Part shown: one piece after another, positions 38,506 to 44,177 of the stretch
Layout: each line of letters starts with the position of its first letter
How positions within the stretch are numbered: position 1 is the first letter of the stretch
Origin: Acidobacteriota bacterium
GTDB taxonomy: Bacteria; Acidobacteriota; Thermoanaerobaculia; Multivoradales; UBA5704
Reading direction: 5' to 3'
Assembly (NCBI GenBank): GCA_040005235.1
Contig: JBDTZG010000027.1
Span: 8,900 to 72,899, forward strand
DNA: 64,000 nt
Notes under the pieces: generated by a model
The model's database searches: none
The model's input: the letters and a program-made list of their open reading frames with translations, nothing else
What the model was told of the DNA's origin: nothing
Position numbers and translations under genes: made by a program

Positions 38506-39687
38506 CTAGCAGGGTTCTGCGAAAGACCCCCGCTTCCCGCCGGCTTGCGCCAACAAGGCGACGGTCTCGGTGAAATTTCCGACCACTTCGCAGCATTCAT
38601 CGAACAACCAAGTAGAAACGCCCGCGGCCTCGCGAGCCCGGATCGCCACGGACCTTTCGGGCAACGGCAGGCGGAGCTGCGCCGGGCGTTCGGACGGTTC
38701 TCGGTCGGCTTTGGTGTCGAGCACTCCGGCCTGCCATCCCCGTTCACCGAGGAACCGGGCGAGCGCCGCCGAATAGCCATGGGTCGCGAGAACGCGTTCG
38801 GCACCGCTCTCTTCGATCGTCTTCAGCAGATCCCCCCAGCCGGCGTGATCGGAAACGACGAAGCCTCGGTCGAAGCTCGAACGGCGCACCCGGTCGGGCA
38901 GGAGCATCCAGCCCGAGGCGAATGCGGTCTTCGCGCGACCGAACCGGCGCATCCAAAGCGAGCCGAAAGCCGCGGGCGGAGCGACGATCAGATCGCCCGC
39001 GAACGAGCCGCGGCTTTGCGGATCGATCCGCCGCGTGGCCGGCAGAACGACGCCCGCGCGGAGGTAGATCTCGTTGATCGCCTCGATCGCTCCATGGGTC
39101 CGAATCGTTCGTCCCGCGACGTGCGGCAGCAGCTCGGCGAGCAGCCGCTGCGCTTTGCCGAGCGAATAGGCGCAGAGCACCGAAGCGCGCCCCGCCGCCG
39201 TATTTTCCCGCCACCAATCGGCGATCTCGGCAGCCACCGTCGAGGTCTCCTCCCAGCGGTAGATGGGCAGAGCGAAGGTCGCCTCGGTGATGAAGGTATG
39301 GCAGCGGACCGGCTCGAACGGCGCACAGGTAGGGTCGGCCTGGCGCTTGTAGTCGCCTGATACGACCCAAACCTCGCCGCGGTGCTCGATCCGCACCTGC
39401 GCCGAGCCGAGCACGTGCCCGGCGGGATGAAACGACACGTCCACCTCGCCGATCCGCCGCTTCTCTCCGTACGGCATCGCTTCGATTCGCGCCTTCGGCA
39501 GGCGGTGCTCCAAGACGCCAAGCCCGGGGGAGGCGGCCAAGTACCCCGCCGATCCCGAACGGGCATGGTCGCCGTGAGCATGGGTGAGCACCGCCCGCTC
39601 GACCGGCCGCCAAGGATCGATCCAGAAACCGCCTTCGGCGCAATAGAGGCCGCGACCGTCGAGCGCCAGGAGCGGAGCGCGGATCAG
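38506..39687 (-). CDS. Ligase-associated DNA damage response exonuclease (MBL fold), probable CTG start, C-terminal ligase-like tail
   Basis: GLYCAEGGFWIDPWRPV, THAHGDHAR, AGHVLGSAQ, SGDYK, ITEATF, YSLGKAQR, SDHAGW, THGY. Confidence 0.88.
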   Translation of the reverse strand: MIRAPLLALDGRGLYCAEGGFWIDPWRPVERAVLTHAHGDHARSGSAGYLAASPGLGVLEHRLPKARIEAMPYGEKRRIGEVDVSFHPAGHVLGSAQVRIEHRGEVWVVSGDYKRQADPTCAPFEPVRCHTFITEATFALPIYRWEETSTVAAEIADWWRENTAAGRASVLCAYSLGKAQRLLAELLPHVAGRTIRTHGAIEAINEIYLRAGVVLPATRRIDPQSRGSFAGDLIVAPPAAFGSLWMRRFGRAKTAFASGWMLLPDRVRRSSFDRGFVVSDHAGWGDLLKTIEESGAERVLATHGYSAALARFLGERGWQAGVLDTKADREPSERPAQLRLPLPERSVAIRAREAAGVSTWLFDECCEVVGNFTETVALLAQAGGKRGSFAEPC

Positions 39688-40784
39688 ATCTCTCCCTCAT
39701 CCTCAAACAGCTCCAGCTGCGTGAGGCCGGCGCCGTGGACCAGGCTCGATAGCGTCACGCCGAGCAGGCGAACCGCGCGGGTCGGCGCGTCGGTGGCATG
39801 GCGCAGCAGGCCGCGCGCCGCGCGCAAGATCGTTCGGGCCTCGCAGGTCGGCCAGGCGAGGGTACGCGATCGGGAAAGGGTGGTGAAATCCGAATAGCGG
39901 ACCTTGAGCGTCACCGTGCAACCCGCGAGGTTCCGTTTCTCCAAAGACGCCGCCACTTCGACCGCCATCCGTTCGAGCTCTTGTTCCATCGGCTCCAGGC
40001 CGCGCAAATCTTCGGCGTAGGTGTTCTCGGTCCCCAGGCTCTTCCTTTCTTGGTGGATTTCGACCGGCCGCTCGTCGACGCCGTGGGCGAACTCCCAGAG
40101 TACCCGGCCGTGCCGGCCGAAGCGGACGACGAGATCCTCGGGCTCGCGAAAGCGGAGGTCCGAGACGGTCGCGATCCCCATCTCGGAAAGCGCCCGCTCG
40201 GTCGCGGGGCCCACGCCATGCAGCCGGCGAACGGGCAGCGGCGCCAGGAATTCGAGCACCTTCCTCGGCGGCACCACGGTCAGGCCATCGGGCTTGTTGA
40301 AGTCGGAGGCGATCTTGGCGATCAGCCGGCTGGGGCCGACACCCACCGAGACCGTGAGACCGCGCTCCTCGCGCACCCGGCGGCGGATCTCTTTGGCAAC
40401 CGCGGTCGCCGTGCCCCAAGAGCCAAGGTGCTCGGTGACGTCCAGGTAGGCCTCGTCGATCGACACCGGTTGGAGGATCGGCGTGATCTCGCGATAGATC
40501 GCAAAAATCTTCTCCGATTCCTTGCGGTAGCGCCGAAAATCGGGCGGCAGAAAGACCGCCTGCGGGCAGAGCCGGACGGCGCGGGAGGACGGCATGGCGG
40601 AGTGAACGCCGAACGCCCGCACCTCATAGGAGGCCGCCGCGACCACCCCACGCGACTCGGGCCGCCCGCCCACGATCACCGGCTTGCCGCGCAACGAAGG
40701 GTCGTCGCGCATGTGAACCGCGGCATAGAAGCAGTCCAGATCGCAATGCAGGATGCGGCGAAAGGCGGTGTCGGATTCGGACAA
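39684..40784 (-). CDS. dinB: DNA polymerase IV
   Basis: ILHCDLDCFYAAV, ASYEVRAFGV, SIDEAYLD, AKIASDFNKPDG, GVG HhH. Confidence 0.95.
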   Translation of the reverse strand: MSESDTAFRRILHCDLDCFYAAVHMRDDPSLRGKPVIVGGRPESRGVVAAASYEVRAFGVHSAMPSSRAVRLCPQAVFLPPDFRRYRKESEKIFAIYREITPILQPVSIDEAYLDVTEHLGSWGTATAVAKEIRRRVREERGLTVSVGVGPSRLIAKIASDFNKPDGLTVVPPRKVLEFLAPLPVRRLHGVGPATERALSEMGIATVSDLRFREPEDLVVRFGRHGRVLWEFAHGVDERPVEIHQERKSLGTENTYAEDLRGLEPMEQELERMAVEVAASLEKRNLAGCTVTLKVRYSDFTTLSRSRTLAWPTCEARTILRAARGLLRHATDAPTRAVRLLGVTLSSLVHGAGLTQLELFEDEGEI

Positions 40785-40891
40785 AGTGGGCCTGGGCGAC
40801 CCGGCATCACACCGGGAACGCCGCCGACTTTACGCCGCGATCACGCCTCAATTCAACCACAGACCCGGACGAGCTTTCCACTAGCGATCGC

Positions 40892-40926
40892 CCGAGCGTT
40901 TGAGGTCGCAAATTGCGACCTCAAAC
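40892..40926. repeat. Palindrome copy 1 (35-bp direct repeat with copy 3)
   Basis: CCGAGC+GTTTGAGGTCGCAA-A-TTGCGACCTCAAAC, perfect 14-bp arms. Confidence 0.95.
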
Positions 40927-41017
40927 ACGGGGCGCGGCGGCATTCTCAAACTCGTTTCCCGGAATCATCGAGAAGTTGACCCCCCTTTTACGTCTTAGCT
41001 GGCAAAGGAGAAAGTAC

Positions 41018-41569
41018 ATGGCGAAAAAACCAGCCACCACCGCCCAGCTACGTAAAGCCACCCAAGCCGTCGAGAGCGCAATCATCGTCCTCAGGGGAGA
41101 GCGAGTCCTGCTCGACTCCGACCTTGCCGAGATCTACGGCGTTCCGACCAAGCGACTCAACGAACAGGTGAAACGGAATCGCCGCCGGTTCCCTGCCGAT
41201 TTCGCGTTTCAACTGAGCGCGCCGGAGACCGACGGTTTGAGGTCGCAAATTGCGACCTCAAACGCGGGGCGCGGCGGTCGCCGCACGCGGCCCTTCGCGT
41301 TTACCGAGCACGGCGCAATTATGGCGGCCAACGTCCTCAGCTCGCCTCGGGCGATCGCCGCGAGCGTTCTCGTGGTCCGAGCCTTTGTTCGAATGAGACA
41401 GGCACTGGCGCCTCATGGGGAGATCGCCCGCAAGCTGGAAGATCTGGAACGGCGAACGGACGAGCGGTTTCACGAAGTCTTCGCCGCAATTCGAGCTTTG
41501 ATGTCCTTGCCGGCTGCTTCGCGTCGGCGCCGCATCGGCTTCTCGGTTGCTGAAAAAGCTGGCCCGTGA
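41018..41569 (+). CDS. ORF6N (KilA-N-like) DNA-binding domain protein
   Basis: RGERVLLDSDLAEIYGVPTKRLNEQVKRNRRRFPADFAFQL, LRSQIATS, PFAFTEHGAIMAANVL; SD AAAGGAG before ATG 41018. Confidence 0.92.
   Translation: MAKKPATTAQLRKATQAVESAIIVLRGERVLLDSDLAEIYGVPTKRLNEQVKRNRRRFPADFAFQLSAPETDGLRSQIATSNAGRGGRRTRPFAFTEHGAIMAANVLSSPRAIAASVLVVRAFVRMRQALAPHGEIARKLEDLERRTDERFHEVFAAIRALMSLPAASRRRRIGFSVAEKAGP
41235..41263. repeat. Palindrome copy 2, inside the ORF6N CDS (encodes LRSQIATSN)
   Basis: GTTTGAGGTCGCAAATTGCGACCTCAAAC, identical to copies 1 and 3. Confidence 0.95.
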
Positions 41570-41587
41570 GACTTGAATCTGGGGTCG

Positions 41588-41622
41588 CCGAGCGTTTGAG
41601 GTCGCAAATTGCGACCTCAAAC
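41588..41622. repeat. Palindrome copy 3
   Basis: CCGAGCGTTTGAGGTCGCAAATTGCGACCTCAAAC, identical to 40892-40926. Confidence 0.95.
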
Positions 41623-41646
41623 GTCCGGGCTCGCCAACGGCGGGAA

Positions 41647-43065
<1,419 letters not shown>

Positions 43066-43139
43066 GGGATGGAATGTCCTTTCGGTGGAGAGTGCTTCCA
43101 GGGCGTATGGTAGCGAGTGGCTATCCCATCGTCCAAAAT

Positions 43140-44177
43140 CTAGGGTGGAGACGCGGCGTGTTCCGCCGGATCGCGCCAGGGCTCGACGGGAACGTCGCGG
43201 ATCGGCCCGGGCGGCGGCTCTTCGAGCACCCACAGCAGATGCGAGACGAATTCCTCGGGGCACTCAGCCTCCGGGGTATGGCCGCACGCCGCGATCAGGA
43301 GGAATCGAGCTCTGGGCAGCTCTCGGGCGTAGCGTCGTCCGAGGTCGGGAGGAAACAGCTTGTCGGCGCCGCCCCAGATAAGATCGGTGGGGGTATTGAT
43401 CGCTGCGAGCCGGCCGTCGAGAAAATCGCGGCGGGAAAAGCTCGCGAAAATGCGCGGCGCCGGCCCTTTCTGCATTTTCTCGACCACATCGTCGAGCAGG
43501 AATCCCGGCAGCGGAGGAATCCGCGGCCCGAGGATCGCCTCGGTGAAAATTCGCGCCTCGGCCCGGTTGTGCACCAGGAACTGAACCTTCGGCGGGTAGA
43601 GCAGGCCGCCGGTGTCGACCAGGACCATGCGCGAGATCCGCTCCGGATGGCGCTCCGCATAGAGCAGGGCGACCCAACCGCCGAGCGAATTGCCAATCAG
43701 GATCGGCGGCGGCCGGGTCCCGGCATGCGCCGCGAGCAGCGCTTCGAGCCCGGCCACCTCGTCGGAGATCGACAGCGGCCCCTTGGCCGGTGCGCTGTCG
43801 CCGTGCCCGGGCAGATCGATCACGATCAGCCGGTGGCCTTTCAACAGTGCGGGGACCGACTGCGCCCAGACCCCCGCGTCGTTGCCCAGACCATGGATCA
43901 GGACGAGATCCGGACCGGGAGATTCTTTGACGCCGCCGATCCAGTAGCTGAGCTTGCCGCGTGGGCCGGGCATCGTTCGATGTTCGAGCCCGGCCCACGA
44001 CAGTCGCAGGCGAACGAACGCGCGCCAAAGGCCGAGCGGGTTGACCCAGATCGCGAGGCCGGCCGAGACGACCAGGATCGCCAAGGCGGCAAGTAGAGGC
44101 AGCGCCCGCCGCAGCCGGGTCTTCTTCCGCGGCGGAACCGAAACGTCGCCCTCTTCGAGCCGGGACATTTCGCTCAT
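43140..44177 (-). CDS. Membrane-anchored alpha/beta hydrolase
   Basis: LIHGLG, DLPGHG, GNSLGG, CGHTP. Confidence 0.88.

Follow-up and report, generated by a model that had tools for sequence, protein, structure and literature searches.

The window analysed here is a 64,000-nucleotide stretch of contig JBDTZG010000027.1 from an Acidobacteriota bacterium (assembly GCA_040005235.1), and the element in question is a 29-bp palindrome that occurs three times in and around a small ORF6N gene located between dinB (39684–40784, minus strand; PF00817) and fumC (41647–43263, minus strand; PF00206/PF10415). The ORF6N gene (41018–41569, plus strand) encodes a protein of 183 amino acids that matches PF10543 (E 6e-31), and it is preceded by the ribosome-binding site AAGGAG (41005–41010, plus strand), 7 nt ahead of the ATG at 41018. 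The palindrome, GTTTGAGGTCGCAA-A-TTGCGACCTCAAAC, was located by exact pattern matching on the plus strand at 40898–40926, 41235–41263 and 41594–41622; on the minus strand it differs at the centre base only, and it had no match in 100 dinucleotide shuffles of the sequence. Copy 1 (40898–40926) is non-coding, with its centre 106 nt 5′ of the ORF6N start codon in the spacer between the divergently oriented dinB and ORF6N genes. Copy 2 (41235–41263, plus strand) lies inside the gene, where, in the ORF6N frame, the codons TTG AGG TCG CAA ATT GCG ACC TCA AAC specify residues L74–N82 (LRSQIATSN); read on the opposite strand, the peptide becomes LRSQFATSN. Copy 3 (41594–41622) is again non-coding, with its centre 39 nt past the stop codon of ORF6N, where this gene and fumC converge.

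The outer copies form part of exact 35-bp direct repeats (40892–40926 and 41588–41622) spaced 696 bp apart. The right flank of copy 1 (40927–40940, plus strand) is identical at 13 of 14 nt to the right flank of the coding copy (41264–41277, the A/GRGG codons), so that 42 of 43 nt agree between these two copies when the 29-mer and the next 14 nt are taken together; from its sequence, the 40927–40940 segment is read as a conversion tract or remnant. The three identical 29-mers, the two peptide readings, the direct repeats and the 42/43-nt match had all been pointed out in a preliminary description made from the sequence alone, and each was recovered when the sequence was re-read. The gene, both flanking palindromes and a few outer bases together make up a block of 754 bp (approximately 40890–41643) that is present in some related genomes and absent from others.

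All 16 large open reading frames examined between 28.8 and 54.5 kb are of housekeeping type or have no Pfam hit; none of the 16 encodes an integrase or transposase, as had been stated earlier, no ParA or replication gene was found among them, and the locus belongs to neither a prophage nor a defence island. A scan of positions 40700–41750 returned no sigma-70-like promoter. Between copy 1 and the ribosome-binding site (window 40941–41000), two spacer blocks, AACTCGTTTCCCGGAATCATCGAGAAG and TTTACGTCTTAGCTGG, are kept in four genomes of the genus (G000, G002, G003 and G007) amid varying surroundings; they may be promoter elements, although they do not fit the sigma-70 consensus. The ribosome-binding site is likewise kept in G002, G003 and G007. 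An octamer, GCGATCGC, which is the octamer called HIP1 in cyanobacteria, adjoins copy 1 on its left (window 40880–40890) and was seen once.

The genome to which the window belongs (G000; 6,224,448 bases in 140 contigs, 66% G+C) was searched for further copies. No additional 29-mer with up to 3 mismatches was detected in the whole assembly, the 14-nt half-site was found at the three sites only, and the 10 other genomic matches to the 10-nt core are unrelated and non-palindromic. The genome contains a single PF10543 gene. Comparison of the dinB-fumC spacer in eight genomes of the genus (G000–G007) also revealed no palindrome elsewhere in these genomes. A dispersed repeat of the genome-wide REP (repetitive extragenic palindrome) or MITE (miniature inverted-repeat transposable element) kind, which the preliminary description had named as an outcome that would undo its reading, was therefore rejected, given three copies at one locus and no tyrosine (IS200-like) transposase among the 16 neighbouring reading frames. 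An integron-type or site-specific gene cassette was rejected as well, as there is no recombinase nearby and one locus per genome.

It is also unlikely that the triplication is an assembly artefact, because the three-copy layout recurs in separate assemblies of other species (G002 and G007, and G003 up to the end of its contig) and because an unrelated sequencing run yielded a 1590-bp contig, 95% identical, that reaches across copies 1 and 2. The evidence from sequencing runs consists of Logan contigs of four runs, which break at the 35-bp repeat and are hence blind to the junction of a 696-bp circle: contigs of 7014 bp and 14960 bp end at the repeat, a 721-bp unitig corresponds to 40897–41617, and a 35-bp unitig corresponds to 40892–40926. 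No joint leading back to an earlier position was listed for these runs.

ORF6N is said to have been defined by Iyer and co-workers in 2002. In the window protein, the PF10543 match (107 bits against a cut-off of 27.8) covers residues 21–106 and profile positions 2–86 of 86, and ORF6N is the only Pfam hit. The protein matches three PDC-S05 models in PADLOC (PDLC04869, E 5.9e-47; PDLC04856, E 6.8e-44; PDLC04849, E 2.1e-33) and anti-repressor families in PHROG, and neither an NCBIfam family nor a match in a profile search of the Protein Data Bank was obtained for it. An AlphaFold2 model (mean pLDDT, the per-residue confidence score, 77) predicts a winged-helix-like N-terminal domain with a helix-turn-helix-like pair of helices at residues 33–40 and 44–53, followed by long C-terminal helices at 110–162; the Gly/Arg loop right after the motif (residues 80–86) has a pLDDT under 50. 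Structural comparison with VIA-align gave Dachshund/SKI DHD (Z 5.9 and 5.5), the baculovirus Orf22 N-domain (5.6), Par DNA-binding domains (5.3) and Mbp1 (4.2), all below the informative level of the tool, and Foldseek returned weak winged-helix-like matches (best E 0.13). A single search scored over 8000 homologues, and the source names of the 91–92% identical proteins point to Thermoanaerobaculia, in the Acidobacteriota; among cultured phages, four unannotated records carry an ORF6N homologue, and no more. In two homologues, P0008 and P0017, the annotated N-terminal extension (..FEVA(K/D)CDLK..) results from translating an upstream copy of the palindrome in another frame; therefore, the start sites of some ORF6N proteins in the databases are probably wrong.

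The palindrome within the coding sequence is a DNA-level feature of the ORF6N family. A survey of 203 ORF6N loci was assembled from 17 relatives, 80 species genomes of many phyla, 80 metagenome contigs and 26 viral contigs, and these loci contain 211 ORF6N reading frames that cover the motif. Arm pairs were scored at positions ±2 to ±12, for which the background of 10 or more pairs is 3e-4 per position. At least 10 of 11 pairs are formed in 200 of the 211 genes, with all 11 in 134, nine in 7 and eight in 4. The survey defines a clade in which the codons aligned to residues 74–82 carry a palindrome with 10 or 11 of the 11 arm pairs and with CA..TG flanking its centre; the coding site of the window, with 11 of 11 pairs, falls within it. 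In nine of the 211 genes the same core is shifted by one base and is read in the other frame, where it encodes EVVANCDHL instead of LRSQIATS. In the window, five of the nine motif codons are rare (relative use: TTG 0.09, AGG 0.03, CAA 0.20, ATT 0.10 and TCA 0.02), and the joint probability of the nine codons under the codon usage of the genome is 1.2e-7; 20,000 random synonymous recodings of the motif retained a mean of 4.5 of 12 pairs and a maximum of 10, and none reached 12. The rare codons, the retention of the palindrome in 200 homologues and its presence in two reading frames bear out the earlier proposal that the motif is constrained as DNA.

Across the survey genes, changes in one arm are compensated in the other, often by a residue change on one side and a synonymous change on the other (R to M with ACC to ACA; S to L with GCG to GCA), and in one example by two residue changes (R to T with T to M); the resulting motif variants include LMLQIATS, LTSQIAMS and LRSQFATL. 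The centre triplets are symmetric under inversion, with AAT (I) in 76 genes and ATT (F) in 73, AAA in 15 and TTT in 18, and GAT in 9 and ATC in 7, which agrees with the suggestion made at the outset that F and I are interchanged by flipping the palindrome. Mismatches are unevenly distributed: positions ±7 and ±8 hold 50 of 92, positions ±3, 4, 6, 10 and 11 are almost free of them, and the centre triplet varies freely. On the sense strand, they comprise 23 G·T, 32 A·C and 37 other mismatches, and thus show no wobble excess. Non-coding copies, which are free of coding constraint, are confined to the same few sequence classes. Taken together, this pattern fits a symmetric duplex that is recognised by sequence and left uncontacted at its centre better than it fits a constraint on pairing only, as in RNA or single strands, and extrusion of hairpins would be compatible with it, each copy folding stably as a single strand.

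To identify additional sites at the survey loci, a detector blind to each locus's own sequence was used, with reversed sequences as a control. This analysis identified a total of 80 extra sites in 55 of the 203 loci, and none in the reversed sequences. Sixty-eight of them, in 47 loci, are non-coding; with start positions extrapolated from alignments and hence approximate, 39 of these lie within 100 nt upstream of the start and 17 at 101–300 nt upstream, while nine fall between −10 and +100 of the stop codon and three further downstream. Thirty-seven loci carry such copies upstream only, six downstream only and four on both sides, to which a fifth (L162) can be added by eye; the arrangement of the window, with copies on both sides, is thus rare (4–5 loci). 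The layout of palindrome, gene and palindrome also occurs in other gene neighbourhoods (L009, L021 and L144/L162). By eye, the helical phasing of the 337- and 359-bp spacings of the window showed no consistent pattern in comparison with other three-site loci. An extra site differs from its own coding site by 4.06 mismatches on average and from those of other loci by 5.68, a value as low being obtained in 0 of 5000 permutations, and 31 of the 68 non-coding sites are within 2 mismatches of their own coding site. Flanking copies tend to resemble the internal copy of their gene, a correspondence that the preliminary description had offered as a check, and its concern that homologues might show neither palindromic constraint nor flanking copies did not materialise, although flanking copies are a minority feature.

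Some loci carry several copies in series. On a metagenome contig (L207:690–810), four palindromes of four classes stand back to back, approximately 30 nt apart, and end approximately 15 nt before the ORF6N start; the second alone matches the gene's own coding site, and similar arrays occur at L040 (6 extra sites) and L057 (3). At L040:1719–2036, just downstream of an intact ORF6N gene, a truncated 3′ fragment of ORF6N starts exactly at the palindrome (..ALRSQIVTLKRGQHSKYLSFTFTEEG..), which hints, from this one sequence, that breaks or joins may occur at the site.

The co-variation between protein and site was then considered in 183 distinct proteins, with columns picked by top mutual information. 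Proteins whose site has G at ±4 carry R46 in 141 of 143 cases and E49 in 131 of 143, and those with A at ±4 have a residue other than R at position 46 in 31 of 32 and Q49 in 32 of 32. Likewise, G at ±10 is accompanied by R89 in 160 of 162 proteins and A at ±10 by K89 in 15 of 15, and the base at ±7 is associated with K45. These links between bases and residues are the strongest outside the residues that the palindrome itself encodes. In a tree built without the columns concerned, seven independent pairs for R46 comprised six that changed in the same way, none in the opposite way and one unchanged, and E49, K45 and R89 behaved alike. Among the frame-shifted genes, in which ±4 encodes other residues, eight have a recognisable helix and six of these obey the rule: G at ±4 goes with R46/E49 in 4 of 5, and A with non-R46/Q49 in 2 of 3, the third A site being degenerate. 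The non-coding sites follow the protein encoded beside them: next to R46 proteins the ±4 base is G in 23, A in 11 and C in 3, and next to non-R46 proteins it is A in 21, G in 1, C in 1 and unpaired in 1 (Fisher p = 1.6e-6, kinship ignored).

Because residues of the predicted DNA-reading helix and R89 co-vary with bases of the site, and because the non-coding copies follow the neighbouring protein, the palindrome is most likely the docking site of the very protein in whose gene it lies. The window protein has K45, R46, E49 and R89, and all three of its sites have G at ±4, 7 and 10; on this pairing, the protein and its sites are predicted to be cognate under the apparent code. The self-referential model put forward at the start, with a protein that recognises the stretch of its own gene coding for part of it, finds its support in comparative evidence only.

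The explanation favoured here, at a probability of roughly 0.55, is that the 29-bp palindrome is the cognate site of this ORF6N protein and has been triplicated around the promoter region and the gene, most likely for autoregulation. ORF6N genes of the clade would carry a cognate site within their own coding sequence, and in this lineage two more would have been added. A symmetric dimer or higher oligomer, an assembly suggested by the symmetry of the site and by the predicted long C-terminal helices, would dock on each copy; reading of the inner bases would fall to helix 44–53, with R46/E49 matched to G at ±4 and K45 to G at ±7, and that of the outer ones to the Arg-rich loop that follows the motif, with R89 matched to G at ±10. 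As the three sites bracket promoter and gene, the protein would most likely control itself by occlusion, roadblock or looping. With no other cognate target on the host chromosome, any further targets would be located on incoming DNA. Selection and occasional transfer from copy to copy would keep the three copies alike, and recombination between the flanking direct repeats would delete the gene and leave a solo palindrome. The constraint on the DNA, its conservation in the family, the co-variation, the conserved non-coding copies, the three alleles and the conversion tracts are observed, and from there binding, oligomeric state and regulatory effect are inferred; autoregulation appears to be the most economical function because of where the extra copies sit across unrelated loci.

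Several points weigh against this explanation. The co-varying columns were chosen by highest mutual information, which constitutes a selection bias, and the tests on independent pairs rest on 6–8 pairs (p about 0.03). Residue 79 (A or V) is likewise set by the ±4 base in the main class, and contacts within the protein could therefore add to the signal; only the eight frame-shifted genes speak against this source. In non-coding copies the correlation could be a passive consequence of copying from the coding site; approximately 20 of the 68 belong to a different class from their own gene, and A at ±4 occurs in 11 of the 37 sites beside R46 proteins. The assignment of the reading helix comes from a structural model in which the motif peptide is part of a low-confidence region, and the fold matches are weak (best Z 5.9). 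Lastly, the scan called no promoter that copy 1, 106 nt before the ATG, might overlap.

The eight genomes of the genus represent three alleles of the dinB-fumC spacer. Three palindromes are found in G000, G002 and G007, two in G003, one in G004 and none in G001, G005 and G006. At the start of the G003 contig (G003:C81:1–95; locus L006), the expected third palindrome is garbled, with 22 of 29 positions identical, which probably reflects noise where the contig ends at the repeat. Between G000 and G002/G007, 110 of 116 positions (95%) of the flanking copies are identical, against 322 of 519 (62%) of the adjacent spacer, a difference with P = 1.5e-16, or 6e-7 at a conservative spacer identity of 78%. 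Copy 1 is conserved at 100% in G002 and G003 and at 93% in G007, against 55–78% for the adjacent spacer, and copy 3 at 100% in G007 and 86% in G002, against 33–62%. In G007, copy 1 contains a compensated outer change, GATTGAGG...CCTCAATC.

The sequences beside the palindromes are shared in combinations that differ among species. In G000, copy 1 shares its left flank with copy 3 and its right flank with copy 2; in G007, it shares its right flank with copy 3, in place of the coding-copy tract common to G000, G003 and G002. Because the flanks are common to copies in different combinations in different species, these sequences indicate that copying between the sites has occurred more than once, in line with the templated copying between coding and flanking copies that had been proposed beforehand.

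The genomes that carry the cassette group together in trees of dinB (support 0.98) and fumC (0.74 with FastTree; 59/84 with IQ-TREE), and the divergence of the cassette is similar to that of its neighbours (ORF6N, 91–92% at the amino acid level; fumC, 90%, and dinB, 88%, at the nucleotide level). In a fumC tree rooted with four other genera, in which only two inner branches are well supported, the empty G005 branches first and the solo-site G004 pairs with the empty G006 (93/96); no palindrome of the family type was found within 400 nt after fumC in the four outgroup genera. The solo palindrome of G004 is identical to that of G000 at 29 of 29 nt. In sequencing run X5, a low-depth contig (2.3x) that is 95–99% identical to the window joins position 40877 to 41644 through 12 letters resembling 40878–40889; it is thus an empty allele, with both ends beyond the palindromes. 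The simplest reading of these comparisons would be one old acquisition followed by vertical descent, with loss in G004 by recombination between the direct repeats and larger deletions elsewhere. One gain with later losses and two separate gains are both possible on this tree, and the solo site of G004 could also have arrived separately.

The first alternative to autoregulation is that the palindromes are a self-immunity or addressing element of a defence gene, in the manner of BstA and aba: they would hold, silence or mark the protein at home, or act as a decoy on mobile elements, and the job would not be ordinary transcription control. This is a possibility with a minor share of the probability. 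The abortive-infection protein BstA has a KilA-N-like N-terminal domain and is suppressed by a cognate 63-bp element, aba, overlapping its own gene, each homologue having a matching element, according to passages of the report by Owen et al. (2021; PMC8585504). The window gene likewise carries a short DNA element of its own, here predicted to be cognate, and its predicted winged-helix-like N-terminal domain would correspond to the KilA-N-like DNA-binding domain of BstA as those passages describe it. The protein also matches PDC-S05, a candidate family defined by genomic association, at E 6e-47, and one PDC-S05 representative reduced the plating of T7 and T5 approximately 1000-fold in E. coli, as stated in a preprint (bioRxiv 10.1101/2024.09.26.614923). 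The host chromosome lacks any other cognate site, arrays of several classes are present at some loci, and the exact 25-mer of the window is found on six viral contigs: inside ORF6N genes in three, in a decayed ORF6N remnant in one, approximately 250 nt past an ORF6N gene in one, and alone in one complete record of 176 kb. In this last record, a phage with terminal repeats (L239), the solo 25-mer is at 701–725 in an A+T-rich intergenic region, and no PF10543 hit was found.

Other observations tell against this alternative. That preprint presents the PDC-S05 member it tested as a RhuM-domain protein, whereas the window protein hits ORF6N only in Pfam. PADLOC returned PDC-S05 models only, with no BstA model at E up to 0.01, and the locus is outside any prophage or defence island. 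The aba element, as those passages present it, is of the direct-repeat kind and stands at the gene's 5′ end, rather than being a palindrome in its middle: it is 63 bp long, spans the start codon and needs terminal direct CCCGCC repeats. BstA, again by that account, is prophage-borne and larger, whereas the window locus is chromosomal, between housekeeping genes; flanking copies are present at the window locus, and the passages on aba describe none. The PADLOC entry for PDC-S05 and the PDC-S05 papers found by search make no mention of the palindrome. By analogy, BstA is the best-studied counterpart and a defence-linked self tag stays a live rival; it is compatible with autoregulation, and the same sites could serve both.

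A wider proposal in the same direction is speculative and, as it stands, unlikely. It holds that ORF6N genes are self-addressed modules with an address written in codons. A simple read-out (R46/E49 for G at ±4, K45 for G at ±7 and R89 for G at ±10) would diversify together with the site and yield many mutually exclusive pairs of protein and site, which would mark kin or self in defence against phages or in the exclusion of elements. At the chromosomal three-site cassette, the protein would be kept at home until foreign DNA brings in sites that are cognate or nearly so, non-cognate arrays and solo sites in phages would be decoys or cross-talk between sister systems, and LRSQ[IF]ATS would exist mainly through the DNA constraint.

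The palindrome might instead perpetuate itself without serving the protein, which is rather less probable than a defence role. Hairpin-templated repair would keep the arms paired and flip the loop, and gene conversion from a coding copy constrained by the protein would maintain functionless flanking copies. Ripley, and Lovett and co-workers, reportedly described template-switch mutagenesis at quasi-palindromes, and such switching would offer a one-step route to the compensatory arm changes and the centre inversion seen in this family. The inversion symmetry of the centre triplets (76/73, 15/18 and 9/7) is what loop inversion would give, the flanks shared in species-specific combinations show copying between sites, and each copy forms a stable single-stranded DNA hairpin with a 13-bp stem (−15 to −19 kcal/mol; z −6 to −7). 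Nevertheless, correction of one arm by the other keeps symmetry and not sequence, and the core persists in different phyla and in either of two reading frames, with specific positions nearly invariant; as a mutational mechanism, template switching leaves this conservation unexplained. Nor does it account for the regular positions of the extra copies in unrelated loci, just ahead of the start or just past the stop, which random copying does not predict. In addition, the solo copy of G004 has no gene beside it and yet equals that of G000 at all 29 positions (P about 0.013 at 86% identity), for which a recent deletion would be another explanation.

A minimal mobile cassette that integrates and excises through the palindromes, served by an enzyme in trans or by the ORF6N protein itself, is improbable. 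Full (G000, G002, G003 and G007), solo (G004) and empty (G001, G005 and G006) alleles at one spacer are what such a cassette would leave behind, as is the low-depth contig of a 95–99% identical relative that lacks the whole block. The recurrence of the palindrome-gene-palindrome layout elsewhere, the ORF6N fragment that starts at a palindrome at L040 and a few mosaic pairs would also be consistent with mobility. Against this, no integrase or transposase is encoded within approximately 12 kb on either side, each genome has one locus and the eight genus genomes have no other copy of the site, the cassette diverges like its neighbours and the cassette genomes cluster, as under vertical descent, the empty allele of run X5 ends outside both palindromes, copies on both sides are limited to 4–5 of the 203 loci, and ordinary recombination between the 35-bp direct repeats explains the solo site. 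Of the preliminary suggestion of an element that integrates or excises through its repeats, the one-copy dinB-fumC site does exist in G004 and fits recombination between repeats, but mobility itself is not borne out.

The mosaic pairs are L043 and L141 versus L165 and L184, in which the N-terminal halves are 71–75% and the C-terminal halves 92–96% identical, with a step in DNA identity near the palindrome. They represent 4 of the 31 close pairs (at least 90% identity in one half), and a recombination breakpoint at the palindrome was set aside as a candidate, the pairs being too few and the step too blurred to build on.

Finally, RNA hairpins in the transcript, whether as stem-loops that stabilise it, as sites for RNase III or as a terminator past the gene, are very improbable: a 13-bp stem is possible in each copy, copy 3 lies between convergent genes, where a terminator is expected, and the downstream copy sits at or just past the stop codon in several loci, but there is no G·U excess on the sense strand (23 G·T against 32 A·C), sequence and not pairing alone is conserved, none of the three stems is followed by a T-run, the scan of 40700–41750 detected no terminator at the palindromes (the only terminator-like site, 41721–41737, is inside fumC and unrelated), some upstream copies are 100–300 nt before the start and may lie outside the transcript, and Rfam yielded nothing at the gathering score and two sub-threshold chance hits.

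Binding sites within coding sequences are known from other systems. The lac operators O1, O2 and O3, with O2 in lacZ, and gal OI in galE include auxiliary operators within coding sequence, and three operators take part in looping. As there, several copies of one symmetric site are located upstream of and inside the transcribed region, hundreds of base pairs apart; in lac and gal these are bound by an oligomeric regulator. Unlike at the window locus, the internal operator of lac and gal is in the target gene and not in that of the regulator, and it is not known to be kept across phyla or frames or to dictate conserved residues of the regulator. Closer in this respect are parS within parB/spo0J and the lambda ori iterons within gene O, which are sites inside the gene of their own binding protein. 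Site and gene of the binding protein form one physical unit there, as in the window, inseparable by recombination or transfer; parS and lambda ori serve partition and replication, whereas the window has one chromosomal locus and no sign of either function. Di Nocera and co-workers are said to have described, in 2013, REP elements with their RAYTs (REP-associated tyrosine transposases) and terminal-inverted-repeat-associated tyrosine transposases. There too, short perfect or near-perfect palindromes flank a small gene, but REPs occur in tens to hundreds of dispersed copies with a tyrosine transposase, and the window has three copies at one locus and no transposase.

Sites inside the gene of their own binding protein were thus already known from aba, parS and lambda ori. 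What is unusual here is the conservation of the site across phyla and reading frames, its imprint on a conserved protein motif and the apparent read-out code; new at this locus are a three-site cassette that is conserved, the full, solo and empty alleles found in nature, and the evidence of copying among the sites. Searches on ORF6N, PDC-S05, KilA-N and four 15-mers of the site, which did not extend to supplements, found no paper on the palindrome among those listed.

If the protein binds the palindrome, this would be a very widespread case of a recognition site within the coding sequence of its own binding protein, shaping a conserved motif. Regulator and site would travel as one inseparable unit, and the family would provide natural matched pairs of protein and site with a readable specificity code. 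The window locus, one gene with three identical sites and no further target in the genome, constitutes a compact test system, for which nature offers full, solo and empty alleles to compare. The same finding would call for caution in evolutionary analysis, since "conserved residues" can be by-products of a constraint on DNA, and it would provide a mechanistic handle on PDC-S05, a common and uncharacterised candidate family of phage defence.

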